NCBI GenBank assembly: GCA_977020255.1
Contig: CDROCS010002180.1
Location: 434,001 to 498,000, forward strand
Length of the DNA stretch: 64,000 nucleotides
Source of the DNA: Obrimoposthia wandeli
Lineage: Eukaryota
Reading direction: 5' to 3'
The notes under the pieces were generated by a model. That model was not told the origin of the DNA, did not search any database, and saw only the letters and a list, made by a program, of their open reading frames with translations. Shown here in pieces: positions 300 through 29,164 of the stretch; position 1 is the first letter of the stretch; each line of letters begins with the position of its first letter. A program made the position numbers and the translations under genes.

Positions 300-1699
300 A
301 CAAATTTCAGTACAAATTAATATAAAAATGTACTGATAGACAAATGATTGATCTAGTCACATCTAAAACCATATTTATTGCCAATGTATCAAATTACTAT
401 TTGACTATTACAAAATGACCTATTTGGATAGTATATCTACTGTAGTTTGTTATCTGGTTCATTCTCAGACAAATCGAATGTCAAATTTTAAAATTAATTA
501 TCATTGATAGCCATTTATTATTCTAGTATTGTGGTTTAGAAAATTGGCTTAAATAGTCTCATATATATATATATATATATATTTAAATTTGAAACATGTA
601 CAATTATATTACAATTTCATATTCAAAAAGTAAAATGTAATTATAAAATATTACAACATAAAATACCTTGAAATTTATGTTTATAACAACTCCTAAAAGC
701 ATCACTGAGGTTTATGTTTAATTTTGATAAATAAACCGTCAGAATATATAGTAAATTACATACAAACATTGTAAACTTGAGTATGTGAAAGAATTTATAT
801 ATAGAGTTTTCTGCAGATATTTTTTCCAATAAATGTACTTTAATCTACATCAATGTATCAAAAGTGAAGTGACATTCAATCGATACTTAAAATGCTATTT
901 GATCTTAATTTAATACAACAGCTGATTTCAAAATGAATGTTGTCTTGTCAAAATAAATAAGAATGGTAAAAACAATCGACAATGTATTTTGATTTAAAAT
1001 TCTATAATTCAACTACGTTTAATGGTAAAATTCCAATATATATATTTTTAATTTTAAGGGTTTTCTTGAAATTCCTTTGTATAGATAGATTTTGACTGCT
1101 GTACTTTTTATTTCAACTTTTTTTATTTGCATAATTTTTGGTAATTTAAATGTAATTTTTTGTTTAAATTTCATATAAAACTAGTTTTGAAGTCAACAAT
1201 TGCTTATAATTTTTTGTTGATTACATTTTTATAATGTTTGAAATTGTCAAAACTCTGGTGAAATATAACATCAACTATATAGTTGTCGTTTTTTATAAAG
1301 GGAGCCGCAAAATGTATTAATTGATTAAATCGAAACCAATCTTCATATTTTTAGAGGTATTTGTTGAAATATTGTTGTTTTAAACCGATTTTATTGATCG
1401 AAATTCTGCAAAATCGAGCTGGATGTTTTGAATAAATTATTATTATTAAAGTCTAAATTTAATTATAACTTTATTTATTTATTTGAAATCAGCTTTTAGC
1501 GCAATATAATATTAAATATATTTATTTAAAAAAAAAAATTATTTTGAGGCTCCATTTATAAAAATAGAACAAATATATAATACATGTATAACAAGCTTAT
1601 GTTGGAAAATAATTGGATTCATAAAAATTAAATAATTTGTAGTGCATTCGTAACTTCTATCTTATCTTATCTTTAAGATAGACTATACATTCTTTATCG

Positions 1700-3050
1700 T
1701 ATCTAAAACTGGTGACTTTGCTGACCAATAAATGGTTTAAGTCCAATCATTCGCTTATAATGGTTTAAAACAATACTTCTACGTGGAATTATATTATCAT
1801 TCATATAGAGATAATCTGAAGAAGGATCTTCTATTTTAAATGAAATGCCAGCTACATAATTCTCAAGAAATTGTATTTAGATCTTCAAATTCATGTTTTC
1901 TGAGTTAAATTAATTTATCAATAAATATTATCATCTTATCTCTGGTTATAAAGAAATCAGTTCAACCTGCAAACCAAATCATATCCCATGGGTAAGATAT
2001 TCTCTTCACCTTCCCCTTCTCTTGACAGTAACCGAATTATGATTCTTCCACCTTTACGACAGTTGAACAACTCTTGACCACTGTTCATTTCTTCAGAGAC
2101 AATGTTTCATCCCGAAATCTAAACGGTTCTTCTTTTGAAGATCTGTAAGTTGAGATTTTAGATTTTCTTTAACTATTTTTTCAAACTACCATATTTTATT
2201 TGTCATCTAACGGTTCTGGTTGATGTATAATACAAATTCAAATCTATTTTTAATGTACTAATGTGGATAATTCTATATCTTACAACGGAACGAATTACTT
2301 GTATAATTGGTTCTTTTACTCGATACTTTAGTTCAACCAGATCCTTTATAAAAATTTTAATGAAAATTAATTTATATATAAGGTCTGATGGTCGTTTGTT
2401 TAATTCTGGCTATTTTGCTTATTTCAAATTTATTGAATATAAAATCACATAAATATTTAACACTTATCAAATAGATATTATTTTTTATAGAATTAATTAC
2501 ATATAAATTTTTATCAATAATAATAATCGCTAGTATTTAAGTTAATTGATTAGTATTTGAATATCAACTAATTTAAAAGACTCTCAATTGAAATTAATGA
2601 TATTTTGTCTACCACTGTAATACGTTTGATAATGAAATTTTTGGATATGTTCATTATTATGTGAGACACGATATGTTGAATTTTGAGCGAAAAGCAGCCA
2701 AACAAACAATAAATTCAGACGAAAAAAAGAATTTTCGTCAATAATAAGTCCAGCAATGGATTTTACAGCGATGATCCCAAAGCCAATTGTTGATAAAAGA
2801 CGCCAAAACAAAAGCTGTTATTTTATCTAGATATGATGATAGTGTATATAAACTCGGAATCTCAAATGGCATTATGAAGCAGCTTCATAATCGTAACCAA
2901 TCCATTCTTTATGAATAACTCTTTATATAACTTTTCGTGAAGTGTAAAAGCAAATTCCGGATGCATTAAATGACTGTGAAACTGATTGCAAAATAAATAT
3001 TTTCCGATGACAAAAAGGAACTGAGACGTGCTAGAAGTAATTGTACTAAT
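1700..3050 (-). mobile_element. possible highly decayed Gypsy-like pol remnants
   Basis: Minus-strand fragments loosely resembling RT (FIMPFEIP) and integrase Zn-finger (VVKSCSTVVK..YCQEK); many stops. Confidence 0.25.
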
Positions 3051-4521
3051 AAATAATACATTATTATATATTAAATTATTTGATGTTTAATTTATTATTT
3101 TCATGTTAGTTTTGAAGTTTATTTTATTATATTTCAATGCAGAAACAGTCACATCAAAATGGTTATTGTTTCAGGAAATTATTATAATAAACATTATTAT
3201 ACGTATTTCCAGAATTTTTCTGATTCCTGTAAAATACATATTGAGATTAGAGTTGTACACTTCTTAGGGAAGCCTCTAACTTAAGGTGGTAGAGCTTACA
3301 GAGGAGCCTGCCCAGATTAATTTATTTAGAGGGGTGTAAAACGATCGGCTTTGAAATGGATATCAAAACTCGACAAATCAAAATCAACAATTTATTAAGA
3401 TTTTTCGTAACGAAAAATGACTTAATTGGATTAACATATCGATTATAAACTTTATCATATTTACATAAATAACAAAAGTATACTTTCACTTTTGTTTCAC
3501 ATATACTAACTGTCCGTCCTCGGGATCACACCTGATCACTTGGTCGATTAACACAGGTGAAACTTTATTTAATTGAGACTACAACCAAAGAATAAATTTT
3601 AATTTTAATAAATTTAAAGAATAAATTTGATATCGTTTAGAAATGTAACTTCTGTAACTTTTGAGATGATTAAATTACATACGATTTTCCTACTAGGCAA
3701 TATGAGTAGATGTGGGACCTAGGTAAATTCTGGCTCCGCTCTTCATTCGATAGATGACGTCGTAGATAATGTTGTCTAACAATTGCGTTTGAGTCTCTCT
3801 GAGTTTCCTTTTTATATCCAGATGGGTTAGGCTGCTAATTGGTTCTCTTTTTCTGAGACTCTGTGGCTCTAACTATCTTCTGTGATTTTCAGTGGCTATC
3901 ACCTCTAACTGGCGACTAACCTTATTATGACCTTCTATTAATTATGCCTATATTTGGTCATAATTAGTTGGTCTTTAATTATCTTCGTTGCTTATTTTAG
4001 TTTTTAATAGTTTTGTAAATCAATTTAATATATATATATATTTTTTTTTATCTCCATATGTTTTAGGCCACGACTATAAATAATCGCAAATTTATTGAAT
4101 ATTTAATTTTCTTTTCCTTTCCTGTTCCTCTATATTTTTTGCTTACTAACACTGTTCTTCTAGCTTGACGATCATTAACACACGTAGAAAGACCCTTAAG
4201 TATGTACTCTTGAGAAAGTAAACTACTAACGATACAATCATGGTCCTCATGTTTCTTGTTTTTTAATCAAGTTCCCATTTATTTAAGAATTCTCATAATT
4301 GTTGGCGCTTTGTCGATTTGATGAATTTTTATTTTATAAGTCTTTATTTTATTGGGTTTAACATTTTCTAGAGTATTTAGTCTAAACATTGTCACCAAGT
4401 TTAGTTTTAAACCTAAAAATACACCAGCCGGGAATGTTTCTAGGATCTGAACCAACACATATTAAAATGTAAATTACATCTTGAGTAGGAAAATTTATTA
4501 TTTATAATTGTCAAATATCAG

Positions 4522-13569: not shown

Positions 13570-13900
13570 TGTAACATAGATCCTCAGACGGAGGGCCCCA
13601 ACGTGAGTTCTATAGAAGCAGGACTTGTAAATGTTTGTGGCCTACTTGTGTTATGCTTGCCTATCTCAATTTGTATCTGAAGTTTATTTATGGTTAGGTG
13701 TTGTGAAATGTGTGAAGAGCTGTGTATATGAATATTGCAGAATTCCCTTAGTGTGGTGTTGTGTGTAGAGTAGTTAACAACTACTTGCTTGTAAGGGTTC
13801 GGTTTGGTACAATACGGTTTAATGTAGGATATCTTTATTTCTAAACACACGACTTTACGTTTTGACCTGTTCTAAAAACAGCAATACTAATTCTAGTTAT
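13570..13900 (+). mobile_element. 5' part of a putative LTR interrupted by the Polinton (continues 29165-29182)
   Basis: Starts TGTAAC at 13570; beyond the Polinton the sequence resumes and ends CTAACA followed by AG-TGG (PBS-like). Confidence 0.5.
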
Positions 13901-14478
13901 AAGTGTAAAGTGTCGGTTCTAAAACAATAGCACACAAAGCCCTCCCCCTCCCCGAACAAGGAACGAGGAACAAAGCACATCTGGAATTCGCTTAGTCATG
14001 CAGATGTGCTTTGTTCCTCGTTCCTTGTTCGGGGGTGAGGGCTTTGTGTGCTATTGTCTTTGAACCGACACTTTACGTTTTCAATCCTGATTGGTCTTAT
14101 GTGTCATTTACAATTATGTAGGTTAATATTCTGTAACATTAAGTATATAGTTCAAAAATTTAAAAATTTAAAAAATTTTAATTCAAAATTAAAAAATTAA
14201 ATATGGAAATTAAAAAATTAAATATGGAAATTAAAAAATTAAATATGGAAATTAAAAAATTAAAATTTTAATTCAAAAATTAAATATGAAAATTAAAACA
14301 TTAAAATTTTAAAAATAACATTTTGAAATTAAACACAATTGACCGTCCCAAATTTTTATTTGCAACTATTTAATTTACTTAGTACGGCAACCTCATTCCA
14401 GGAGTTAGACTGCCCCGCATAACCGGACAGCTATCGCAGTTTTTATCTTAAGAAACGTTATTGTTTATAGTAGGAGTT
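13901..14478 (+). repeat. left TIR of Polinton, with terminal hairpin 13905-14076 and A-rich tandem array ~14150-14320
   Basis: Reverse complement of ~28562-29154 with scattered mismatches; lacks the terminal AGAG. Confidence 0.92.
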
Positions 14479-14533
14479 TATATTTATATAATGAAGAAAG
14501 CAAAGTAACATCGATAAATATATATTAGTACAA

Positions 14534-15187
14534 TTATAAGCGAACTTGTCCATCAGTAATTTTCCAGATTGGTTTATGAAGACCTGTACAGTTGATTTTG
14601 TATCCCTGTATTGAAATGACGATCATCCATTTGAGTCCAGTTTCCATATTGTCAACATTAAAGTCGTGATCTCGCTTGAAAAGATTAGGATCAGCTCGAA
14701 TTATTATATGATTCCCAACTATAATGTTGAGATGCATCGACGCGAAAGTTGTGTTAAGATCATCAATATCTGATGGATTTAATCTATGTATCTTGAAATC
14801 GTATTTTGACTTATTCAGAGCCACCGGAAACATGAATCCATATATGATTGGAGTCTTCAAAAAATTCATTTGCCAGTTATAAAACATAACCGGCTTGGTT
14901 TACTTCAAATCGTTAGACTCAAATATTACACCTGATGGTCTATTGTTGATGAACGGTTTCTTATGTTTGAGTGTAGAAACTATATCATCAATAAAGAGAT
15001 CCTCATTTGTTGCTTGCTTCTCAATCTTGATAGTCTTGGATAGTTTGTTGTTGTTGCTTGTCATAGTTTGCTTCTTTGGTTTTGATATAAAAACTACATC
15101 ATCATCATCGGTATCCACATCTGTGTCTGTAAGCCTTGTTGTTGGTGACTTCTCGAACTTAAGAGATTTAGTTTGTTTAGAGTTCAT
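14534..15187 (-). pseudogene. Polinton leftward gene (~217 aa): acidic/Lys-rich N-terminus plus globular C-terminal domain, one in-frame TAA
   Basis: ORFs 14900-15187 and 14534-14887 share a frame and are separated only by TAA at 14900-14902 (..ESNDLK*TKPVMFY..). Confidence 0.7.
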
Positions 15188-15189
15188 AT

Positions 15190-15313
15190 CAAAATAATGA
15201 ATTCTATACCAAAAGTGGTAGCTTATATATATATCATCATACTCGATTCTGATTGGATAATCTTTAGCTTAAAAATTTTATATATAGATTGGGTTATTTC
15301 CATTAATTCAATC
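15190..15313. promoter_or_regulatory. divergent promoter between leftward gene and TBP-like gene
   Basis: TATATATA runs at ~15224-15233 and ~15279-15286, each ~35-45 nt from an ATG; ATTGGATAAT at 15252-15261 and a second ATTGG at ~15288. Confidence 0.55.
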
Positions 15314-15806
15314 ATGAATCTTGCAAATATTAATTATAAAGGTAAAGTTAAAGGAGACATCAGTCACTTACCCTACAAAGCCGGGAAACCATGTCAGTAC
15401 GTGCACAGGTGTAAGGATTATACCCTTATAATCTTCCGTTCAGGTATGTTTTTATGTTAGTTAGTTAGTTAGTTAATTATTAGGAGCATGCATGATAATG
15501 GGTTGCAAGAAACCTATTACTACAACTATGCTCAAGTGTCCATTTAGAATAAAGATTGATCGTATTCAATCAGTAACGGTTACTGTCGATTTAGGTAAGA
15601 AGGTGAACCTATACAAGTTGTCTCAAAAGTGTGGAGCTGCATGCATGTTCGAACCTGAGTTGTTTCCTGCTTTGAGGTTTACAAAACACAATCTTCTGTG
15701 CGTCAACATATTTGCAAGCGGGAAAGTGGTCATACTCGGTCTCAAGGATTTGGATTATAACTTTGATGTGACTTTGATAATAACTGATATTTTACTTTTG
15801 ATATAA
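15314..15806 (+). CDS. TATA-box-binding protein (TBP)-like protein, 150 aa, join(15314-15443,15484-15806)
   Basis: Spliced product has both TBP repeats: TLIIFRSGACMIMGCK (cf. TALIFSSGKMVCTGAK) and FEPELFPAL...VNIFASGKVVILGLK (cf. YEPELFPGL...LIFVSGKVVLTGAK); the 40-bp GTATGT...TTAG intron restores the frame. Confidence 0.92.
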
Positions 15807-15848
15807 ACAATAAATTTTAGTTGAATTTTTATTCTTACATGATTTGAA

Positions 15849-16748
15849 ATGCTAGTTGATTATATACTTCATTATACAACTGTTGATGATGTTTTAGTTA
15901 GACGAAAAGTAGGTTATTCTAGAATGAAAGTTTTACACTGGAAATATAGACGTGAAAGTGAAAGATTAAGATCATTAATTATAAATTTTAAAGGGAAACA
16001 ATCTGTAAATGATTTAGCTAAAGCCGGATTTTATAAACATGATGATGATTCAACCGATAAAGTAAAATGTATATACTGCCAAGGTGCGTTATCCGAATGG
16101 GAATGGTATCTTAAACCAATGAAGCAACATATGAAATTTTTTCCTACATGTCCATTTCTTTTAAAGTTAAATGTTTCAAATGGACCAATAATTGAAACTA
16201 TGGACAAGAAAATCGATTTTGATACATCACCATTGATTGGAAAAGTACATGTATCAGATATTGATATAAAATTACCTGATATATGCTATTCAAAATGTTT
16301 AGGACCCTATAATGAGGCTAATGTTATTGAGAAAATCGAAACAGATTGTATAATTGAATATCCTTTGACTATTGAGAAATTCGATATGTTGATGGATACA
16401 AACCAAATCAGATATTTGAAAAGGTTTTTCACAAAAGATAGAATAAAATCTGTTTTAAAATATAAAATGATACGATATGGTGAATACAATTCACTATTTG
16501 AATTGCTTTGTGATTTATCTAATTTAGAAATGAAACCTGAAAAACAATATATAAATATACTTTCATACATTTTAAAGGAACCCGAATGTGTAGTATGTTT
16601 AAATAATCATATTGAAGTAGTATTTCTCCCTTGTGGACATGTAAATACATGTATATCATGTTCTAGAATGTTACATTCATGTCCAGTATGCAGATGTCTG
16701 ATCGAACGGAGAGTAAGAAATGTAAAATTTCATGGTATAAACAATTGA
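15849..16748 (+). CDS. iap: inhibitor of apoptosis (IAP): one BIR domain plus C-terminal RING, 299 aa, intact
   Basis: BIR: LAKAGFY..DKVKCIYCQGALSEW..PMKQHMKFFPTCPF; RING: CVVCLNNHIEVVFLPCGHVNTCISCSRMLHSCPVCR. Confidence 0.95.
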   Translation: MLVDYILHYTTVDDVLVRRKVGYSRMKVLHWKYRRESERLRSLIINFKGKQSVNDLAKAGFYKHDDDSTDKVKCIYCQGALSEWEWYLKPMKQHMKFFPTCPFLLKLNVSNGPIIETMDKKIDFDTSPLIGKVHVSDIDIKLPDICYSKCLGPYNEANVIEKIETDCIIEYPLTIEKFDMLMDTNQIRYLKRFFTKDRIKSVLKYKMIRYGEYNSLFELLCDLSNLEMKPEKQYINILSYILKEPECVVCLNNHIEVVFLPCGHVNTCISCSRMLHSCPVCRCLIERRVRNVKFHGINN

Positions 16749-16766
16749 AATTTATGATTTATATAA

Positions 16767-17033
16767 ATGGATGAAAACAATAAATTAGTTGATGATGCAG
16801 TCGAGGAAATTATAAACGGAACAATAAATGGAGTTCAATACTTTTCTAGTTTTGATGGACTTTCTCGTAATAATATAAAGGAAATTGTTTGCACCCATGT
16901 CTATAGAGATATCAAACGGATAAAGGATTTTGAAATATTCGTTCAAATTAATCGTTCAAACATGATGTATATAACCTTTTCTGCGTCAATTTTTAATTCT
17001 CTGTTGTTGTATATATTAATAAAACGTATATAA
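16767..17033 (+). CDS. hypothetical Polinton protein, 88 aa
   Basis: ATG-initiated ORF filling the gap between IAP and ATPase; TATAAACAAT 31 nt upstream. Confidence 0.6.
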   Translation: MDENNKLVDDAVEEIINGTINGVQYFSSFDGLSRNNIKEIVCTHVYRDIKRIKDFEIFVQINRSNMMYITFSASIFNSLLLYILIKRI

Positions 17034-17063
17034 ACAATCGTTTCTTTTGATTTATTATTATTG

Positions 17064-17711
17064 ATGATGATAAAACTTAAAAATAACGCGGTTTACCAAA
17101 TAGTAGGACCTAGTGGGAGTGGGAAAACACATTTTGTAACTAAATTACTTCAAAATAAAAACATGTTTGATCAAAAGTTTGGTAGAATATACTGGCATTA
17201 CGGAGGTGTAGGTGAATCTGGTCTAACACGAACAGAATTAGGTAAATTGAAGGGTATTCATTTTATTAATGGTTTTGATAATAAATGGTCTGAGAGGTTA
17301 AATTCAGGAGATGTCATTGTAATTGATGACTTGTATGATGAAGCGAATAAAGAGTCGGGTTTTAATAACCTGTTTACCAAAATAGCTAGACATATAAATG
17401 TAACAGTGATTTTTATCACTCAAAATCTCTTTCATCAAGGCGGTCAACACCGTACTCGGAATTTAAATGTACATTATCTAGTATTATTTAAAAATCCGCG
17501 AGATCAAACGGTTATCGACTTTGTTGCCCGTCAAGCTTTCCCTTGCAATAAGCAATATTTGATTGACGCATTTCAAGATGCTACAACTAACCCTCATGGA
17601 TACTTGTTTTTAGATTTTACACAGGAATGTCCAGACGATTTACGCGTGAGAACCGATATTTTCAATAATGATTTTGTATATAAACAAAAGAAAAGCCTAT
17701 CTACTTGTTAA
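17064..17711 (+). CDS. FtsK/A32-like genome packaging ATPase
   Basis: Walker A GPSGSGKT, Walker B VIVIDD, ARH..VTVIFITQNLF, Polinton-typical HGYLFLDF; intact. Confidence 0.95.
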   Translation: MMIKLKNNAVYQIVGPSGSGKTHFVTKLLQNKNMFDQKFGRIYWHYGGVGESGLTRTELGKLKGIHFINGFDNKWSERLNSGDVIVIDDLYDEANKESGFNNLFTKIARHINVTVIFITQNLFHQGGQHRTRNLNVHYLVLFKNPRDQTVIDFVARQAFPCNKQYLIDAFQDATTNPHGYLFLDFTQECPDDLRVRTDIFNNDFVYKQKKSLSTC

Positions 17712-17713
17712 TC

Positions 17714-18025
17714 ATGTCATTTATGAAAGAAACAATGCCTAGTGGAGTTGGACCTAAATGGAGACCGGGTGATAAATTACACGCTAATGATAACAAATTG
17801 ATGCTAAAGAAGAATGCTCATATTAAAAATCTTATTAAATCAGTGCTTCATCAGCGTAAAGTAGTCGATGAATCATTAAAGAAATCGGTAAAGACAGTAA
17901 AGAGAAAACCTGTAAAAAAGAAACCATTAAAGAAGAAACCTGTTAAGAAAGCAGTTGGAAAGTCGGTTAAGAAGTCGGATAAAAAGCGTGTAAATAAACT
18001 AGTTGGTAAATGGATTAAACTATAA
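17714..18025 (+). CDS. Lys-rich basic protein, putative DNA-condensing core protein
   Basis: KRKPVKKKPLKKKPVKKAVGKSVKKSDKK tract; lies in the virion module; function is inference. Confidence 0.7.
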   Translation: MSFMKETMPSGVGPKWRPGDKLHANDNKLMLKKNAHIKNLIKSVLHQRKVVDESLKKSVKTVKRKPVKKKPLKKKPVKKAVGKSVKKSDKKRVNKLVGKWIKL

Positions 18026-18056
18026 ACAATATTGCAAATAGTTTAATTCATTAAAT

Positions 18057-18385
18057 ATGTTATCAAAATCTATACTTCCCTACTTTCAGGCTTTAATCAA
18101 GGCTCCAAGCATATATAGACCACGTATACTCAAGTCATTTCCACCCTTTGTTATTGATAAGTTGGTTGAAGTTTTGTTTAATATTACAAAAGGTACTGTA
18201 AAAATCGGTAATCATAAACATAACCTTAGAAAACATCAAAAAGCTTTACTTGATTTAGTGAATACTAAAAGTAAAACTGGTAAACGTAGAGTAATTCTAA
18301 AACAAAAAGGTGGTTTTATCGGTGCATTAATACCTATAATTGCTATTTAGTATCTCCTTTGATTGCAAAATTGATAAACTCATAA
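18057..18385 (+). CDS. conserved Polinton small virion protein with QKGG|F motif and hydrophobic C-terminal helix (apparent 1-nt frameshift near 18346)
   Basis: ..KRRVILKQKGGFIGALIPIIA; shifted frame continues LVSPLIAKLINS* to 18385. Confidence 0.75.
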
Positions 18386-18436
18386 ACAAAATGGGTAATA
18401 ACATACCAAACATCGATTTTAAATTCACTTGTTGCA

Positions 18437-19458
18437 ATGGAAACGATATGGTACGATCCCGAAAACCCAGCTGGGTACAGCAGCATTACAAAAGTCAATC
18501 GAGTCAAAAGAAAACTCAGAAATGGCTGAGCAATCAGCTAGCATACAGTCTAAATAAGCCAATGAAGCGGAAGTTCCCGACTCGAGCATACAGAACAAGC
18601 GGTCCTAACGATTTATGGCAGGCCGATTTGATGGAAATGATACCATATGCAAGTATCAATGACGGTAACAAGTATATTTTAACATGTATTGACGTGTTTA
18701 CAAGGTATGCGCGTGCATTACCTGTAAAATCTAAATCAGGTAAGGATATAGAGGCTGCTCTAAGTATAATGATTGATAAAACTGTCCCCATACATGTGCA
18801 AACCGATAAGGGTAAAGAGTTTTACAACAAAAATGTAGGTAGTTTATTAAAAAAATTAAATATTGAACATTACTCTGTAGTTTCACAATTCAAAGCTGCC
18901 CTAGTTGAAAGGTTTAATAGAACATTGAGAGATCGATTAAAAATACATTTTATTGCACAAGGCAATAAAAGATGGGTTGACGTTTTACCAAAAGTAATGA
19001 CTTCATACAATCACAGTAAGCATAGAGGTTTAGACGGATTGAGACCTGTCGATATTAATGATAAAAATGCAATGGAAATTTGGTTGAGTCGTAATCAAGT
19101 CGATAAAGTTAATAAACCCAAACATAAGACTGGTGATTATGTTCGGATATCAAAGTTTAGTGGTAGCCCCTTTATTAAAAACTTTGATCCGAATTGGAGT
19201 GATGAAGTGTTTAGGATAGAGAAAATAGACAAACGTGCAAATCCTGTAATGTACTCTATAGTTGATGATGACTGTAATGTAATAACAGGGAAATTTTATG
19301 AACCTGAATTACAAGTAATTGATAAACCTACACTTTTCCGTATCCAATAAGTCGTAAAATCTAAAGGCGGTGGTAAGAATAAACAATATCTCGTAAAGTG
19401 GCATGGATATTCTGAATCAACATGGATCAAAGCAAGCCAGATAGAGACTTCTATATGA
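18437..19458 (+). pseudogene. retroviral-like (c-int) DDE integrase with C-terminal chromodomain; frameshift ~18495 and premature TAA 19348-19350
   Basis: METIWYDPENPAGYSS N-terminus in another frame; DDE triad WQADL / QTDKG / VERFNRTL; after the stop VVKSKGGGKNKQYLVKWHGYSESTWI (chromodomain). Confidence 0.93.
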
Positions 19459-20585
19459 TTTTACCGAGTAATAGTTGTCCGAAAACTCAACCTAATAATA
19501 TGGCTTCATTATTCACTGTAGATTGGGAGAATCCAATTACGTTAAATGGTAAATGGGAGGCGGCATTAACTGAATTTACGTATACAAACACTCCTGTTAT
19601 TTTAAATAAGGGCAGTGAAATTAATTATTCTATTAAATTCTCCAATCAACAGACTGATCAAATATCTTTATCAGTAATTCATACTCAAGTAGAAGTAGAA
19701 AAGAAAGAACCGCAATTGCATGGTGATAAATCAGAACCAAAAGTTATTAAAAAGACAATTAATAAAATATCAAAACTCACCGTCACGTCTAAAGATAAGA
19801 TTGCAAAGCTTTCTATTTCCTTAATCACAGTTGGTGTAGGTATTGATAAAAAGGATAATGTTGTACTAATAAAATCCGTCAACAACAAAAAATTATATAT
19901 CAAGATGGATGCTGACGCTAAAAATGAATTAGGATTCATTTTCAATACATTAACTTCAGAAAGTTTCGAGTCTGATGATAAAGGAGTTTTACAAGGATCA
20001 ACATCTATCAGACCTGATTGCAGTGCACATAATTTACAATATATGCATTATAAAACCGGTTCATACAACAAGAAAACTGTATTTACAGAAGATTTAAATA
20101 ATAATAATGTAAATGCATTAGTAGCATACATTAAATCTAAATGCGACGTTATATTTAAAAGATTTTATATGGATGATAATGATAAGCTAATAAAATTTGT
20201 ATTAAAGAATGGAATTGAGCATATTGGATTTGATCAACGTTTAATGCATGTATTAGGGTTAGATAAATCACGATTTACGGGCAACGGGTCAGGTAAACCT
20301 CGATTAAATTACGAGTTTGATCACATGTATTCTAGTCTGTGTGAACCTGTAAACGTTGGAGGTCAAATGATACCCTTATTAAAATCTATATGGTTAGATA
20401 AAAATAAAGCACCAGGAGACACGGTTAATATCGCAATATACAGACCCATGTATATCCCTTTAGCATCAAATGTAATCTCAAACATTGAAATTAATATTAG
20501 AAACGATGCAGGTGTTCCAATAAGTTTTTCCAACAATGCAAAAGTATCCCTTACCATACATGTCCGTTGTATAGATCAGGTATAA
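19422..20585 (+). CDS. minor capsid protein (penton), intact, 387 aa
   Basis: Polinton-typical N-terminus DFYMILPSNS..NNMASLFTVDWENPITLNGKWEAALTEFTY and C-terminal MYIPL..IEINIRNDAG..VSLTIH. Confidence 0.88.
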   Translation: MDQSKPDRDFYMILPSNSCPKTQPNNMASLFTVDWENPITLNGKWEAALTEFTYTNTPVILNKGSEINYSIKFSNQQTDQISLSVIHTQVEVEKKEPQLHGDKSEPKVIKKTINKISKLTVTSKDKIAKLSISLITVGVGIDKKDNVVLIKSVNNKKLYIKMDADAKNELGFIFNTLTSESFESDDKGVLQGSTSIRPDCSAHNLQYMHYKTGSYNKKTVFTEDLNNNNVNALVAYIKSKCDVIFKRFYMDDNDKLIKFVLKNGIEHIGFDQRLMHVLGLDKSRFTGNGSGKPRLNYEFDHMYSSLCEPVNVGGQMIPLLKSIWLDKNKAPGDTVNIAIYRPMYIPLASNVISNIEINIRNDAGVPISFSNNAKVSLTIHVRCIDQV

Positions 20586-20621
20586 ACAATCTGTATTCAA
20601 AAATAGTTGTGCATTACAGTT

Positions 20622-21028
20622 ATGAATATAATTGAGACATTTAGTGGGCCTCAACAAGGTGGTGAATTACCATATTTTGTAGGTAAACAGTACGGTTCGG
20701 GATGGTTGAAAACATTGGGGCGGTTAGCATTCCCTATACTGAAAAGATTAGGCCGTGTTGGAGTTAAAACAGTTCAAGATGTAATAATGAACAACAAATC
20801 TGTGTTACCAATGCTTAAACAACATGCACTAGGGAAGTTGCCGGAGCCATACCGGAGGCTAAGGAAGCTTTTGGTACAGTTGTTAAAATTATTAAAAATC
20901 GACGTAAACGTAAAGCAAGTGAAGCAGCACAAATGGTTGAACCCGAAACTAAAAAGCAAGAGGGTAGTGGTAGAAAGAAAGCATCTAATATAAACAAACG
21001 AAGAAAACAAGGTACAATATTTGCTTAA
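20622..21028 (+). CDS. Polinton core/cement protein with QQGG and QYGSG motifs and amphipathic helix (pVI-like by inference); frameshift ~20832
   Basis: GPQQGGELPYFVGKQYGSGWLKTLGRLAFPILKRLG; shifted frame gives ..KQEGSGRKK..KRRKQGTIFA* ending just before the hexon ATG. Confidence 0.78.
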
Positions 21029-21030
21029 TA

Positions 21031-22253
21031 ATGGCTTGTGGTAAATCTGAATTATGTATTTTTGATCGAGCTTTGCCTCAGGTAGTTGTAAATAATGGTA
21101 GCTTTGAAGATATATATCCAACAAACAATATTACCGGAACAAGAACATCAGAGATTCTGTTTAAAATCCAAGGTTCAGATATTGAGAACTTAGATTTGAA
21201 TGATACCTTGTTGTTTGTGAAAATTAAAGTAACGAAAACTGATGGTACAGATATAGCTGTTACAGATTATGTGGTCCCATCAAATTTCTTGATGCATTCC
21301 CTATTTAAAAGCATAGATATATCAATGAATAATACTGTAGTAGAAACCCATCCTCAATATGCACAAAAAGCTATGATTGAAACCATACTAAACTATAGCA
21401 CAGACACTAAAGACACTTGTTTGTCGAGTATAGGTTATGATGATACTGAAGATAATCGTAAAGGTTGGGCTGATCGCTCAAAAGAAATTGACTTGTGTGG
21501 GACTCTTCGATCTGATATTTTTGAGCAACCAAAGTATCTCTTACCTGGTGTGTCTATCATGGTAAGACTTGTACCTAATAAATCTATGTTTAGTCTGAAC
21601 TACGGAACGACTCCATCGCGAATCATATTTATTGAAGCTAAACTTAAAGTCAGAAGAGTCAGAGTTGAGAATGATGTTTTAATGGGACATAATATTGGTC
21701 TTGAATCTAGGAATGCTGTATATCCCTATACTCGCACAAAGCTAATGTATCATACCTTAGCCATCGGTTCTACGAGTTTTTACAAGGATCAAGTGTTTGA
21801 TGATGAACAATTGCCTAAATTTGTGTTGATTACGTTGCAAGCAGGTGAAAAACTTATCGGTAATGGTGCTACAGACTCTTCAACATTCGATCATTCTAAT
21901 GTTAACACTATCAGTCTTGCTAGAAACAGTGATTTTAACGAATCTTACAGTACAAACTTTGAAACAGGTGAAACCACCTTTGCATATGTCCAATCTATCA
22001 TTAGAAATATGGGTAATTTGGATAAGAATATAAACAATGGCGTATCACTGGATGAATTCAAAACCAAATATCCATTTTCACGTTTGTTTTAGCCCCTGAC
22101 TTTGATATCACGCAAAACCAATTAGCAAAACAGGGTAATTTACGCCTTGACATCAAGTTTCACAAGTCATTAACAGTCCCAACAAACGTACTGATTTAAG
22201 GGATTTTTGATTCTGAGTTTGAAATAACTAAAGGCCGACGTGTGATTGTATGA
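21031..22253 (+). pseudogene. double jelly-roll major capsid protein (hexon); frameshift ~22078 and in-frame TAA near 22198
   Basis: MACGKSELCIF..LDLNDTLLFVKIKV, SDIFEQPKYLLPGV; shifted frame completes FTFVLAPDF..QGNLRLDIKF..VLI*GIFDSEFEITKGRRVIV*. Confidence 0.92.
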
Positions 22254-22610
22254 AGTGAGTTTTTTAATTTATGTTTTAAGATTTTATTAACAACAAGTAC
22301 TGTTCAGGTGAATGAAATAACTAGTTTGCTGCTCGGACCGCGATTTAAGGGTGTATACCCGTTGGAAATAATCCTAACATTAACGCCTGGTGGATATATT
22401 GTCAATACACATACCTCAAATCTTACTGGAGACCACTGGATTGCGTTATTCGTGAGACGGAATTCTGTACATGTGTATGACCCTCTTGGAGTATACTATC
22501 CGGGAAAACTTATCAAGCATGTAGAGTCTCAAGGAAAACATGTATATTACAACAAAATTCGTTCTCAAAACCCACTGACTACTAATTGCGGTCCACTATG
22601 TATCTTATAA
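22250..22610 (+). CDS. adenain-like cysteine protease, join(22250-22254,22298-22610)
   Basis: Catalytic H (GDHW), D (YDPLG), Q/C (SQ..TTNCG); a 43-bp GTGAGT...TTAAC..AAG intron gives MNTVQVNEI; ATG overlaps the hexon stop (ATGA); TAA at 22610 may be premature. Confidence 0.88.
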
Positions 22611-23100
22611 TTGTATGATCAAACTATATAAATGTCAAACATTTTAATTTGTGTTGATTGGTAATAAAATTTGTATTCAAAATCGTATTTGTTTTATAAA
22701 TAGCTTCAACTACCCAGTCGAAATTTTAAAAAATTTGAGTTTTGATAAATTAAAAAATAGATTTAAAATCTACTAATTAAGAGAAAATTAATGGTGTGAA
22801 TTATTTTTAAAAATTCATAGTCTAACGGTATGAATATCGGTTATGAAAAATATCATAATTGATTGACCGTAATTAACCTTTATGATAACGTGTGTAGCAA
22901 CTAGGGAATAAAGGGTCTTTATGACACATTCCTAGTTTGTAATAATGAAAGTACACACGTGTGTGTGTGCATCTAGGGCAGAAACTACACTGACTGTGAA
23001 CCATATATAAACAATCAGTGTAGATGCATTCATCAATTTTATCACAATTATCAAAAGTAAGTATTTTGATTTTATTTTAATTTTATTATTTTTTTTTTAG

Positions 23101-23472
23101 ATGTCGAAAATTATTTTCGCGTACAATGCTAAGAAAAGATGGACGATGAAGCCTGTAGTCGATATGGATGATGATGATGTCGACTTGGATGCGACACCAC
23201 AACAAAAAGGTAATTTTTTGATTAGTATTTTTAATTTAATTTTCATTTAGCAATGCCCAGTGTCACAACACCACCAATATCGATTGCGCCATGGATACCA
23301 ACAATATATGATGATGATGCTACTAGGAAAAGAAGGAAACAAAAGAAGCCGAAAACCTCTGATGATGATGATGATGCTACTAGGAAAAGAAGGAAACAAA
23401 AGAAGCCGACAATTTCTGATGATGATGATGATAATAAGAAAAATCCAAAAGTTTTTTTATCTTCTAAGAAAT
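23101..23472 (+). CDS. spliced Polinton gene, join(23101-23209,23251->23472), with acidic/basic 19-aa repeats; runs into the gap; upstream intron 23057-23100
   Basis: GTAAGT..TTAG and GTAATT..TTAG introns keep frame; DDDATRKRRKQKKP(K/T) repeated with 57-bp period. Confidence 0.7.
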
Positions 23473-24010
23473 NNNNNNNNNNNNNNNNNNNNNNNNNNNN
23501 NNNNNNNNNNNNNNNNNNNNNNNNNNNNNNNNNNNNNNNNNNNNNNNNNNNNNNNNNNNNNNNNNNNNNNNNNNNNNNNNNNNNNNNNNNNNNNNNNNNN
23601 NNNNNNNNNNNNNNNNNNNNNNNNNNNNNNNNNNNNNNNNNNNNNNNNNNNNNNNNNNNNNNNNNNNNNNNNNNNNNNNNNNNNNNNNNNNNNNNNNNNN
23701 NNNNNNNNNNNNNNNNNNNNNNNNNNNNNNNNNNNNNNNNNNNNNNNNNNNNNNNNNNNNNNNNNNNNNNNNNNNNNNNNNNNNNNNNNNNNNNNNNNNN
23801 NNNNNNNNNNNNNNNNNNNNNNNNNNNNNNNNNNNNNNNNNNNNNNNNNNNNNNNNNNNNNNNNNNNNNNNNNNNNNNNNNNNNNNNNNNNNNNNNNNNN
23901 NNNNNNNNNNNNNNNNNNNNNNNNNNNNNNNNNNNNNNNNNNNNNNNNNNNNNNNNNNNNNNNNNNNNNNNNNNNNNNNNNNNNNNNNNNNNNNNNNNNN
24001 NNNNNNNNNN
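23473..24010. other. assembly gap (538 N)
   Basis: Run of N. Confidence 1.
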
Positions 24011-24070
24011 ATTCTAATTATTTAAATAAACGTTTTGGGGATATAAATGATATAAAATCAAATTCTCCCG

Positions 24071-24132
24071 ACTGCCATAGCTGCCCGGTAACGCGGGGCA
24101 GTCTAACTCCTGGAATGGGGTCGCATAGTAAG
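24071..24132 (+). promoter_or_regulatory. internal copy of a ~62-bp GC-rich TIR cassette, 29 nt downstream of a TATA-like box
   Basis: Aligns with 28600-28662 and the reverse complement of ~14378-14440; TATAAATG at 24042. Confidence 0.75.
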
Positions 24133-24330
24133 TTAACTAAATCAAGAAGTTACCTCTTACTTTTTAAACCAGGGACACCTGTTGGGTCACCTGTTAATTC
24201 GTTAGAAAATTTCAATGTAAATGAGATATACTCGGGTTTTGAAAATATCCCGTTTAAAAAATATTTTAATCAACTAAAGAAAGTTAAAAATCAAAATATT
24301 GATTTAAGTAAACTGAAAACAGAAGGTAAG

Positions 24331-24621
24331 ATGGGTAAACGATTTCGTCAGAAGCTGCGTAGATTGAGAAAACAACCAGCAGGTATAACAATATTTGCAA
24401 ATTTATTAGGGTCTTGCAAACCCATTAATATTAGTCCAGGTCTGAAAATTACAGATCTGGCAAATAAATTATATGAAGTCTTCGGGACTGACCAAATTTA
24501 TTTTTATCGTAATGGCATGCCCTTTGAAGGGGAAGCTACTATTGGCAATGTTTTACATGAGGGGGCTATTATCCATGTATACCCTAAACTTCGTGGAGGA
24601 AGTAACTTATGTACATTGTAA
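24331..24621 (+). CDS. ubiquitin-like domain ending LRGG (24589-24600), in frame with downstream pPolB
   Basis: ITIFANLLGSCKPINISPGLKITDLANKLYEVFGTDQIYFYRNGMPFEGEATIGNVLHEGAIIHVYPKLRGG aligns by eye with ubiquitin; true start uncertain because the frame is open back to the gap. Confidence 0.8.
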   Translation: MGKRFRQKLRRLRKQPAGITIFANLLGSCKPINISPGLKITDLANKLYEVFGTDQIYFYRNGMPFEGEATIGNVLHEGAIIHVYPKLRGGSNLCTL

Positions 24622-27600
24622 AAGTATTGCATAAACGTTAATCATGGAATAGAATGTCATAGTGTAATGCTTAAATATTATAAATTTAAAAGCGGTTTTA
24701 TTTGTCCACATTGTGATGTGTTATATTGTATTGTCTATCAAACATTTTATAATGATCATAAGGATCATCTGACGTATTTTAAATCTAAAAAGTCGGCATA
24801 CAAACGTAAAGTAATGAGTGTACCAACAATAGACAACAATAAAATAACAAAAACTAATAATTTTGATGAAGAGTTTGATGTGGTAGACTCGTGGGAACCG
24901 GATAGTGTTGTAGAAATTGATACTAATCCTGAAGTTGTAGAAATTATTGAGCCTTTAACCCCTAATGACATCTTAAATAATAATAATATTGATGAACTTA
25001 TAGATCAGGACGAGTTTATAACAGAAAATGATTTTTTCGACTCGCTCCTAGCTATTACGGATGATGACTTTGATAATATTGTTACAATTAATTCAGATAA
25101 TACATTAACTTTTAACAATCAAATAGGAGGTGCAATTCAATCAAACCTTGTTTTTGATGTTAGTGGGTTAAACATGCTTAAACTATACATTAACGATACT
25201 ATGCTAACTGAACTTACTATCAGTATAGATGTGTTTGGTCCCTGTAAAATACAGTTTGGTGTTGAAACCGAATTTGTCAATAATGAGGGTCAGCATAAAA
25301 CATGGCATGTAAGCTGTAAAGCAAATATTTTTGAACAAGATTTTATCACTACAAGAACAGTTGAGCTCAACAATAAAATTGAAATTTATAAGGATATGAG
25401 TTCGGGATGGTCAGTATTTAAAATTCTGTTGGTATCCTTTAAATTTACTGCACTTTAAAACGTAGCAGGATCATCATTTATAAAAACCCCGGTTGCGCTT
25501 GCTAAAACACTATCTATAGTGAACGTAAATAATACTGATGATCAGTGTTTTAAATACGCTGTTCTCAGTATCTTACACTATAAAGATTTCAATCGAACAG
25601 ACAAAGAGTTGAAAACTATAATGAATATTTAAATGAACTAATATGCGAGCTTGGTTCTATGAGGATAGACTGCATCAAGGTGTTTGAAAAACTCAATAAT
25701 TTTGCGATAACAGTATTTTCCTATAAACCTACAAAGGTAAAGCCTCATAGTAGTCATCTAGTGTTTAAAAACCTAGATGTTAACGTTATTTATAGAACGA
25801 GTCTTAGGCAGTGCAAAAAAGTAGTAAACTTGTTGCTGTTGAAACAGAGCGGTAATTATCACTATACAGGGAATACAAAACTGAATAGACTTTTATATAC
25901 TCAAAAATATAATGTGCGTCTCTTTTCGGTTTTCGAACCACGATTTCATATGACAAACACAGGGCACATTGTAATATTAATACAGATTTAACAACCTTGT
26001 TTACAATGCCTAAAGATATCAAGTGTCAGTTTTCCGACTATTCTAAATCTATTGCGCCACCATTTGTTGTATATGCCGACTTTGAGTCAATACTCGAGCC
26101 GCATAATACTTTCAAACACATTCATAAACCAATATCTATAGGGATGATTTTGAAAAACAACACTAATAATTCAATACAATATTTTAGTTATTACGGTCTG
26201 CAGTGTGCTAAAAACTTTGTAGATAAATTAACTGAGTTGATAAATGGTGAAGTGGCAGATTTTTGGGTAAATAGTATTAATGTTCCTATGGTTTTTATTA
26301 ATAATGACATGTTGAACTTTAGAGATTGCACTAATTGCTATCTTTGTAGAAAATTAAACGATCGTATGGTTAGAGATCATGATCATATCACGGGTAAATA
26401 CTTGGGTGCGGCATGCAACAAATGCAATTTAAGTCGCAAGTTTGCAAAGAGACCAGTTTTACCTGTGGTGTTTCATAACCTTATGGGTTATGATATACAT
26501 CTTATTCTAAAATATGCTGACTTGAAAGGTAAATACTTTTCAATTATCCCTAAATCAAGTGAAACGTTCATGTCCCTCCGTATAGAGATGAAGAGGGGGA
26601 CATTGAAATTCATTGATTCATACCTTTTTACAACGTCAAGTCTTGAATCCTTAGTTTCATACTTGTCAAGTTGTCCTTATACTACACAATACCTAAACCC
26701 TAATATTGCAACAAGTAAGGCGGTATTTCCATATGAATATATTAGTGGTGTTGATAGGCTTGTGGAGAGGCAGTTACCTGCTAAATCTGAGTTTCCTTCT
26801 CGAGTCACTGATCAACAATATAATGAAGCCCTAATGATGTGGCCGTATTAGGGTGTAATACTATTAAAGACTACATGCTTGAGTATATGAAACTTGAGGT
26901 GTACCTGTTATGTGATGTTTTTGAGGCCTTCAGACAGAAAGTAAGGGATGATGATAATCTAGAGGCGCTCAATTTTTTTAGTATCCCGGTCTCAGTTGGG
27001 CTAGCGCATTAAAAACGTTAGAGTATGACGTGGATTTATTGCATGATCCCGAAATGTATAACATGTTTGAGGCAGGGATACGGGGAGAGATGACTTTCAT
27101 CAAAAAACATTACGTTAAAACAACAGATGAAACATTCCTCCTATACATTGACATAAACAACCTATATGGCTGGGCCATGAGTCAACCGTTACCACATACA
27201 GATTTTACATGGGTATATGACGGTTTTGAAGCGATAATTGAGCTTATAACTGAGAGGGATATTCACGGTAATATGCAGGACTTAAGTCTTAAAGAACATG
27301 GATACTTGATGGAAATTGATTTACACATACCCATCAGTATTCATGATAAACGTGATGACTTACCGATTGCGCCTAATAGAGAAATCCCTCCCGGCTCAAA
27401 AGCTTCAAAGCTGTTGATGACCCATGAGGATAAAAATAATTACATCATACACTCACAACTACTACAATTTTACTTGTTTCTGGGCACAGAAATTAAACAA
27501 GTGCATAGAGCAATAAAGTTTCATCAAGCTCCTATATTTAAAACATATATTTATATCAATAGCCGGAAACGGCATGTAGATAAAGATGTTCTCTTAAAAC

Positions 27601-28094
27601 AAATGATTAAAGATCAAAGGTTAGATACTAGTAATTACCCGCTCACACATGAGTTATTTAACGATACTCATCGAAATGTTATTGGAAAGTTTAAAGATGA
27701 AAGCAAAAGGACAGTGCTTTATGATGAATGGGTATTTCTGAAACCTAAATGCTACTCATTGAAAACCAGTATGAGGGCTAAGGGTATCTCCCTTAAACAA
27801 ACCGAAATCAGACATGAGCATTACATCAAGTGTTATGTTGATGATGAAATTATAACTGCCGGTCAGACACGTATTTTATCTCGTAATCATCAATTATTTA
27901 CAATGTATAATTATAAAATTGCGTTAAGGTGTTATGACGATAAAAGGGTTTGGATTGAGAAAATCAAATCCGTCGCATATGGACACTATAGTCTAAGACA
28001 GGTGTATAAAATCTGGGGTAACCTCTTGAAAGTATTGACTTATATCCTTCTTATTTTTATTGTAATAAGCAGAATATTGTATGTATCTTTTTAA
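24622..28094 (+). pseudogene. polB: protein-primed family B DNA polymerase (terminal-protein region, OTU-like segment, exonuclease, EndoVII-like insert, polymerase); fragmented, motifs B and C deleted
   Basis: SSGWS, NTDDQCFKYAV, VVYADFESIL (ExoI), RDHDHITGKYLGAACNKCN, FHNLMGYD (ExoII), YIDINNLYGWAM (motif A), IGKFKDE, DDKR..AYGHY; several stops and frameshifts. Confidence 0.95.
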
Positions 28095-28211
28095 ATGCGA
28101 TAGTATGTATATATTTTTAATGCTATAGTATGTATATATTTTTATTGATGTTTATTATTATTAATACATTGTATGTATCATAACCATGTCTTGACTTCCT
28201 ACTAGCTACTC

Positions 28212-28270
28212 ATTGGATAATTTCGTTGGATAATTTCATTGGATAATTTTAACAAATTCTCTATAAATAT
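28212..28270 (+). promoter_or_regulatory. three 13-bp repeats containing TTGGATAATTT followed by TATAAATA
   Basis: TTGGATAATTT at 28213, 28226 and 28239; TATAAATA at 28262, 42 nt before ATG 28304. Confidence 0.65.
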
Positions 28271-28303
28271 ATACACACTTCAACCAATTTCTTATTATTT
28301 CAA

Positions 28304-28543
28304 ATGACTATTTTTAAATAAAAATTACAAGCTCTCCATGATAACCTGAGCCCTACCTTGATGGCACAGTATACTGAAAAATACTTAAACTTATTTGTTG
28401 CACCAGAACATTTTGTCTCAAGGATTGAAGAACTTTATATGTATCATCTGTTTAACGGAGACTTTAAACCTAAAGTTGCAACAATCATTAAAATAGAAGA
28501 AGAAGAAAGCATGGATTGTGTTAATGAATATAATTATGTATAA
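28304..28543 (+). pseudogene. small Polinton ORF (~79 codons) with TAA at codon 6
   Basis: ATG 28304 is in frame with ORF 28358-28543; preceded by a TATA box. Confidence 0.45.
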
Positions 28544-28561
28544 ACATAGACTTTTTTACTA

Positions 28562-29158
28562 GACTCCTAATATAAACAAAAACGTTTTTAAAGATAAAAA
28601 CTGCGATAGCTTTCCGGTTATGCAGGGCAGTCTAACTCCTGGAATGAGGTCGCAGTACTAAGTAAATTAAATAGTTGCAAATAAAAAGTTGGGACAGTCA
28701 ATTGGGTTTAATTTCAAATGTTTAATTTTTTAATTTAAAATTTTTAAATTGTAATTCTTAAATTGTGAATTCTAAATTAAAATTTTTTAATTTAATTTTT
28801 AATTTCTAAATTTTTTAATCTAGTTTTTTAATTTCTAAATGTTTTATAATTTAAATTTAATTTTTAATTTCTAAATATTTTTTTTTTATTTTCTAAATTT
28901 TTAATTTTTGAACTATATACTTAATGCTTACATAATATTAACCTACATAATTGTAAATGACACATAAGACCAATCAGGATTGAAAACGTAAAGTGTCGGT
29001 TCAAAAACAATAGCACACAAAGCCCTCCCCCCGAACAAGGAACGAGGAACAAAGCACATCTGAATGACTAAGCGAATTCCAGATGTGCTTTGTTCCTTGT
29101 TCCTTGTTCGGGGGGCTTAGTATGCTATTGTTTTAGAACCGACACTTTACACTTCTCT
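28562..29158 (-). repeat. right TIR of Polinton with terminal hairpin 28988-29150
   Basis: Reverse complement of the left TIR; ends CTCT followed by TSD AGTTAT. Confidence 0.92.
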
Positions 29159-29164
29159 AGTTAT

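Follow-up and report, generated by a model that had tools for sequence, protein, structure and literature searches.

A 56-nt cassette with a predicted RNA fold in the terminal repeats and polymerase gene of a Polinton family

Introduction

Folds that act as operators or decoys within polymerase-coding RNA are known from hepatitis B epsilon and the phage T4 gp43 operator. Viral genomes also encode small RNAs such as the adenovirus VA RNAs, which are polymerase III products of ~160 nt (from part of PMC4378190). Polintons (Mavericks) have been described nearly wholly by their proteins rather than by the timing of their gene expression; excerpts of the main texts of two accounts of these elements (PMC8097293, PMC8502044) make no mention of non-coding RNA. 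Here, we describe a cassette from the genome of the animal Obrimoposthia wandeli that is real, fixed, uncatalogued, and confined to one Polinton family.

The host element

The window analyzed here is a 64-kb stretch of one contig. It contains a Polinton/Maverick element of a family that we call F1, recognized by its terminal inverted repeats (TIRs), target-site duplication and gene content:

13901..29158, + strand: Polinton/Maverick element, family F1
13895-13900 and 29159-29164: 6-bp target-site duplication flanking the element
13901..14480, - strand: left TIR, its inner edge ~40 nt upstream of the cassette
28560..29158, + strand: right TIR
28322..28543, + strand: small terminal ORF with its own TATA, its stop 56 nt before the right cassette

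The F1 TIRs are ~590 nt long and are bounded by the 6-bp duplication. Pfam identifies genes for an rve integrase, an A32-type ATPase, a protein-primed PolB, capsid, a TBP-like protein and an IAP, with the limit that in the mutated copy in the window the PolB, ATPase and capsid matches are weak or below the curated cut-off, rve and Pox_A32 excepted. There are about a thousand copies of F1 in the genome.

Several further observations concern the elements and the assembly. The genome holds at least four Polinton families, with ~1000-4000 first-look candidates per family, and the orientation and position of PolB vary between them. For family F2, the 40 matches listed are all 100% identical across 520 nt. 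The IAP gene (15849-16748) encodes BIR and RING domains and, among the regions fetched, occurs in F1 only. Each terminus of the element contains a near-perfect hairpin of ~170 nt (13905-14076 and 28988-29150), for which the Rfam miRNA matches are all below cut-off. At two loci there are tandem repeats with an 850-1200-nt unit that includes both the TIR cassette and the small terminal ORF, and at five loci F1 ends adjoin genes of other Polinton families, a frequent arrangement that reflects nested insertions. Many tRNAs on the contigs encode CCA and look bacterial, which indicates that the assembly includes contaminant contigs.

Three cassettes per element

The cassette has a GC-rich shared core of 56 nt, and it occurs three times in the window:

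24071..24126, + strand: internal cassette, in frame within the PolB leader, with an in-frame ATG at 24115
28600..28656, + strand: right TIR cassette, pointing outward
14384..14440, - strand: left TIR cassette, pointing outward, with private changes in the outer stem

A covariance model built from 15 natural copies scores these three at 82-89 bits, within the 82-97 bits of true copies overall; the model has 12 matches in the 64-kb window, and the best after the three cassettes reaches 10.5 bits. The initial annotation had described three copies of a 62-bp block, one of them upstream of Ubl-PolB. The number of copies is borne out by this gap in score, while the block is better drawn as the 56-nt core followed by ~14 similar nt, and the copy placed upstream actually lies inside a frame that runs from 23251 into the ubiquitin-like domain and PolB. 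The possibility that the internal copy is a misassembled TIR fragment beside a stretch of Ns is refuted. A 24-place cassette pattern has 3285 matches genome-wide (reversed-pattern control, 0), which among the 100 matches listed fall mostly into triplets spaced ~9.15 and 4.9 kb. The cassette is also present at 30/30 internal and 30/30 right-TIR sister loci that were selected via neighboring genes; each set counts the copy in the window itself, and one of the internal copies is interrupted. These sister copies have the same layout, with a much shorter stretch where the window has its Ns.

The direct-repeat spacing from the internal to the right TIR cassette is 4802-4931 nt in 26/26 copies. The TIR and internal types stay apart, with no hybrids of upstream and downstream flanks in 151 distinct contexts; the cassette is therefore not a working recombination site. 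A search for a SINE-like free unit, with a pattern that sampled about a quarter of possible flanks, gave one match with foreign upstream bases, and this was an ordinary internal copy.

The internal copy and the PolB leader

The internal cassette lies in the following setting, in which the introns (by GT..AG ends and phase) and the exon are predicted from sequence:

23006..23014, + strand: TATAAACAA, predicted PolB promoter, 486-596 nt upstream of the cassette in 23/26 copies
23058-23100, + strand: predicted intron of the PolB leader (43 nt)
23101-23209, + strand: predicted coding exon of the PolB leader
23210-23250, + strand: predicted intron of the PolB leader (41 nt)
23251..24378, + strand: hypervariable low-complexity PolB leader, reading in frame through the cassette and containing the N stretch (23473-24010)
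24042..24049, + strand: TATA-like box, a subfamily allele within coding sequence
24379..24600, + strand: ubiquitin-like domain with a Gly-Gly end, fused ahead of PolB

From 23251, the PolB frame passes through the N stretch, the cassette and the ubiquitin-like domain into PolB itself. Over one measured stretch, leader length ranges between 219 and 315 nt, and the frame is kept in 21/25 copies (25 of the 26 could be counted, one having no anchor). Both cassette types have an ATG at positions 45-47, which is in frame. A TATAAA at -29 of the internal cassette is found in 1/26 pattern-picked copies and in 13/30 of those closest to the window, and the full TATAAACAA precedes the internal cassette in none of the copies examined. 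A splice donor 3' of the internal cassette was considered and rejected, a strong GTAAGT being restricted to one subfamily.

The ubiquitin-like domain has no Pfam match. Its model has a pLDDT of 77, the 49 PDB rows listed are all of the ubiquitin family, and the best E is 0.009 and the TM is ~0.7; the label holds on the predicted fold, not on Pfam. Because the leader precedes a ubiquitin-like domain that ends in Gly-Gly, it is probably dispensable as a protein.

Promoter motif and predicted transcripts of the TIR copies

Both TIR cassettes are flanked by the same pair of signals:

14461..14469, - strand: TATAAACAA promoter motif, 29 nt upstream of the left TIR cassette
28571..28579, + strand: TATAAACAA promoter motif, 29 nt upstream of the right TIR cassette
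14355..14360, - strand: AATAAA, predicted poly(A) signal, at +81 of the left cassette
28680..28685, + strand: AATAAA, predicted poly(A) signal, at +81 of the right cassette

On the sense strand of F1, there are 10 copies of TATAAACAA against 0.46 expected, mostly 35-47 nt ahead of start codons; on the opposite strand the motif occurs once, at the left TIR cassette. Families F2-F4 use the motif as well. They also have relatives of the TBP-like gene (15149-15806 in F1; Pfam TBP, E 8e-13; one predicted intron), and the element-encoded TBP-like protein may serve the Polinton’s own promoters. Of 44 TIR copies, 36 have TATAAAC at -29 and the other 8 have it at -28, and the inner edge of the TIR is only ~11 nt upstream of TATAAACAA. 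AATAAA is at +81 in 25/26 right ends (one is at +85) and 16/16 left ends.

From the motif at -29 and AATAAA at +81, we predict an outward RNA of ~100 nt whose 5' end would be the first base of the fold. A 3' end at AATAAA is a weak inference because the hexamer also occurs several times within the PolB frame. Transcripts of the terminal genes would also include the TIR cassette, in their 3' UTRs. In four runs of contigs from a single sample, depth is even and none of the joints listed is informative about expression. The initial annotation had proposed a small non-coding RNA or structured leader, or else replication-coupled transcription into the termini, citing TATA-like boxes exactly 29 nt upstream at 24042 and 28571. 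The distance is exact, and the left TIR has it too, with a box at 14469. A small structured RNA driven by a TATA box fits the two TIR copies, which have the promoter motif of most of the element’s genes, its spacing kept in 44/44, and a stable fold in intact copies. This reading finds no support in the internal copy, which has no TATAAACAA and codes for protein within the PolB leader. It is correct that no ORF lies downstream of the TIR copies, but the TIR cassette itself holds a 13-codon ATG frame whose ATG is 49 nt after the TATA.

Predicted fold

Both cassette types are predicted to form a three-way junction:

Cassette positions 2-7/51-56: outer stem (predicted)
Cassette positions 10-16/26-32: 7-bp hairpin with a 9-nt loop (predicted)
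Cassette positions near 37-49: short hairpin (predicted)

Pair probabilities are ~1 for the outer stem and the 7-bp hairpin; the TIR type leaves the third stem unsettled. On the sense strand, intact copies give z-scores of -3.4 (0/200 shuffles) and -2.4 (3/200) in windows that had been trimmed to the fold, with weaker values on the opposite strand. As background, a z of -2.4 is reached by 7% of 249 element windows, and the window’s own copies with flanks score -0.9, -1.9 and 0.0. Single-stranded DNA folds too (z -2.5 to -3.3, both strands). All four differences between the types (4/4) are compatible with the fold, as four random changes would be 18% of the time, and those in stems are of the G-U type on the sense strand only. 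The covariation score is reached by 357/500 shuffles, there being too little variation among copies. An RNA structure for the cassette is plausible, not proven.

Sequence constraint

The TIR and internal types are identical at 52/56 bases of the core. Their likeness starts precisely where the fold does, at its first base; just upstream, 13/29 bases match (shuffle p 0.06). GC at third codon positions is 63% in the internal cassette versus 26% downstream, and in one intact copy the cassette is the only 55-nt window with at least 60% GC. Two of the four type differences alter amino acids, and the synonymous sites in positions 21-56 are all shared. Given the high third-codon GC and the shared synonymous sites, selection looks nucleotide-level. 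Among copies chosen through neighboring genes (26 and 27 rows of 30, with duplicates and one interrupted copy dropped), no core column has a variant above 15%, versus 12/220 and 6/96 flank columns (p = 0.06 each). Copies chosen by the core pattern show zero core polymorphism too, which that choice partly builds in. PolB far downstream is just as invariant as the cassette core (p = 0.41). In inserted copies, CpG sites have a 2.5-4-fold higher decay rate but remain the majority state. Overall, the cassette is probably under constraint; the 7% divergence between types could merely reflect a young duplication.

Searches for relatives

Rfam 15 covariance models place the cassette in no family at the gathering level (best E 0.19, 23 of 40 bits), with neither a tRNA nor a Vault match on the cassette strand, and the Rfam ribozyme models, in the circular permutations listed, have no match to 151-nt stretches even at E 10, the twister-sister class included. 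The cores of hammerhead, HDV-like, twister, pistol, hatchet and hairpin ribozymes are absent by inspection, and the helices common to both types do not form a double pseudoknot with a 7-bp P1. SECIS, box C/D, SL RNA, SRP Alu and phi29 pRNA were rejected because their key motifs are missing. ARAGORN finds no tRNA gene or cloverleaf in the cassette, a tRNA-Tyr-like pattern has no match in the genome, and inspection of the cassette shows no B box.

In the sister families, the covariance model reaches at best 14.6 bits across three F2, four F3 and four F4 regions, some of them incomplete. Exact patterns in viral and metagenome collections gave 0, 0, 5 and 24 loci, the best of these 29 scoring 18.9 bits versus 82-97 for true copies; blastn against a phage collection gave nothing better than E 6, and both an ATPase scan of viral contigs and protein searches for relatives of the cassette peptide came back empty, absences that weigh little as the homolog collections hold little animal DNA. 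Searches of the openly accessible literature listed no account of such a cassette or of its sequence strings.

What might the cassette do?

Our tentative proposal, which we regard as possible, is that a short TIR RNA and the cis copy in the polymerase mRNA bind one factor and thereby tune polymerase output. The cassette would be a family-specific module of 56 bases, three per element, that is predicted to form a three-way-junction RNA. Each TIR likely yields a short outward cassette transcript, and the internal cassette likely acts in cis within the polymerase mRNA. The weakest step, which we infer, is that one protein binds both the free RNA from the TIRs and the cassette within the PolB mRNA; the free RNA would then titrate a factor that holds or releases the polymerase mRNA, in the manner of an operator and its decoy. 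The observations behind this model are the three fixed copies, TATAAACAA at -29 and AATAAA at +81 of the TIR copies, and an internal copy that lies in frame. Against it, three sister Polinton families replicate without the cassette, covariation lies within that of shuffles, conservation tests reach just p = 0.06 each, and single-stranded DNA folds equally well on both strands. As a predicted stand-alone RNA that doubles as an in-frame segment of the polymerase message, the fold would give a first handle on RNA-level control in Polintons.

The same observations can be read in other ways. It is somewhat unlikely that a single copying event simply brought ~75 nt of TIR into the rapidly changing PolB leader of the family’s ancestor, where they were tolerated because the frame was kept, with a function in the TIR copy only or in neither. 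The variable leader length (219 to 315 nt in the measured stretch), the young 7% divergence between types set against 25-35% between families, the borderline conservation tests and the internal copy’s lack of the promoter motif are all consistent with such neutral capture. However, the shared block begins at the first base of both the fold and the predicted transcript, the core has no common variant while the codons on either side do, and the types have not been homogenized, as the absence of flank hybrids shows. If the copy is neutral, it is a clean example of a TIR piece captured by a polymerase leader. A site that acts as DNA, bound at both ends and inside the element by an element protein such as the polymerase, integrase, packaging ATPase or TBP-like protein, is unlikely. 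Its place at the inner edge of each TIR, its near-invariant sequence, which is compatible with protein recognition, and the folding of both single DNA strands would suit such a site, but the cassette starts 29 nt after a promoter motif and is always oriented with transcription, and the stem differences are of the G-U type on the sense strand only.

Could the Polinton encode a small RNA of its own whose fold is new, perhaps a self-cleaving ribozyme that would make up a new class? This is distinctly unlikely. On that reading, one pair of copies would flank the polymerase message and one pair would guard the termini, placing a self-synthesizing DNA transposon under RNA-level control. The internal and right TIR copies are direct repeats 4.9 kb apart around PolB; were both cut, the polymerase RNA released would have the AUG within the cassette as its start, and the TIR copies would terminate outward transcripts. 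The size, GC content and compact junction of the cassette suit small ribozymes, the direct-repeat spacing is steady in 26/26 copies, and the ATG at positions 45-47 is in frame in both types; moreover, self-cleavage in RNA viruses can by itself start cap-independent translation (part of PMC13725137). Opposing this are the failure of any Rfam ribozyme model to match and the waste, by an in-frame cut, of a leader whose frame is kept in 21/25 copies. It is very unlikely that the cassette derives from a tRNA, whether as a polymerase III gene comparable to that of adenovirus VA RNA or as an RNase P/Z signal comparable to that of mascRNA. The start of its stem, UA at 8-9, GC at 10-11 and GG at 17-18 do resemble the 5' half of a tRNA, and in one post hoc register a tRNA profile beats shuffles, with 6 and 38 of 1000 reaching the score. 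In the remaining 10/12 profile tests, though, 41-687 of 1000 reach it, and every score is negative; 72 and 71 of 300 shuffles attain the best pairwise scores to 78 tRNAs (mostly bacterial, from contaminant contigs); and the cassette lacks a B box and has the promoter motif of protein genes. Finally, a conserved peptide, encoded by the 13-codon TIR micro-ORF and with the same residues in the PolB leader, is highly improbable: the TIR ATG follows the TATA by 49 nt, near the 35-47 nt of other genes, and its frame is that of the internal copy, but the type differences in shared codons are non-synonymous while synonymous sites are identical, and no protein relatives were found.

Comparison with known systems

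F1 resembles the Polinton/Maverick (adintovirus) elements described in parts of PMC8097293 and PMC8502044 in having TIRs, a 6-bp duplication and an AG-type end, as well as an integrase, an ATPase, capsids and a protein-primed PolB. It differs from those descriptions in its predicted introns, in the ubiquitin-like start of its PolB, and in carrying a cassette in both the TIRs and PolB. For the cassette RNA, the nearest kind would be the VA RNAs, from which it differs in size and polymerase. Like adenovirus VA RNAs and EBV EBERs, it would be a small, GC-rich, structured RNA (here by prediction) whose source is a linear dsDNA virus of the same broad lineage (part of PMC4378190). Unlike VA RNAs, the cassette is 56 nt long, has no B box, is preceded by a promoter motif of protein genes, and recurs inside an ORF. 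The tandem ribozymes of retrozymes, Penelope/Terminon elements and RNA viruses, as described in parts of PMC7229834, PMC6431247 and PMC13725137, likewise place a compact fold at element ends and direct repeats around a transcript. In contrast to these, the cassette matches no catalogued ribozyme, and its host is a DNA-replicating element. In layout, it resembles hepatitis B epsilon and the T4 gp43 operator: a predicted fold lies in the polymerase-coding RNA, and it occurs two times along the longest predicted F1 transcript.
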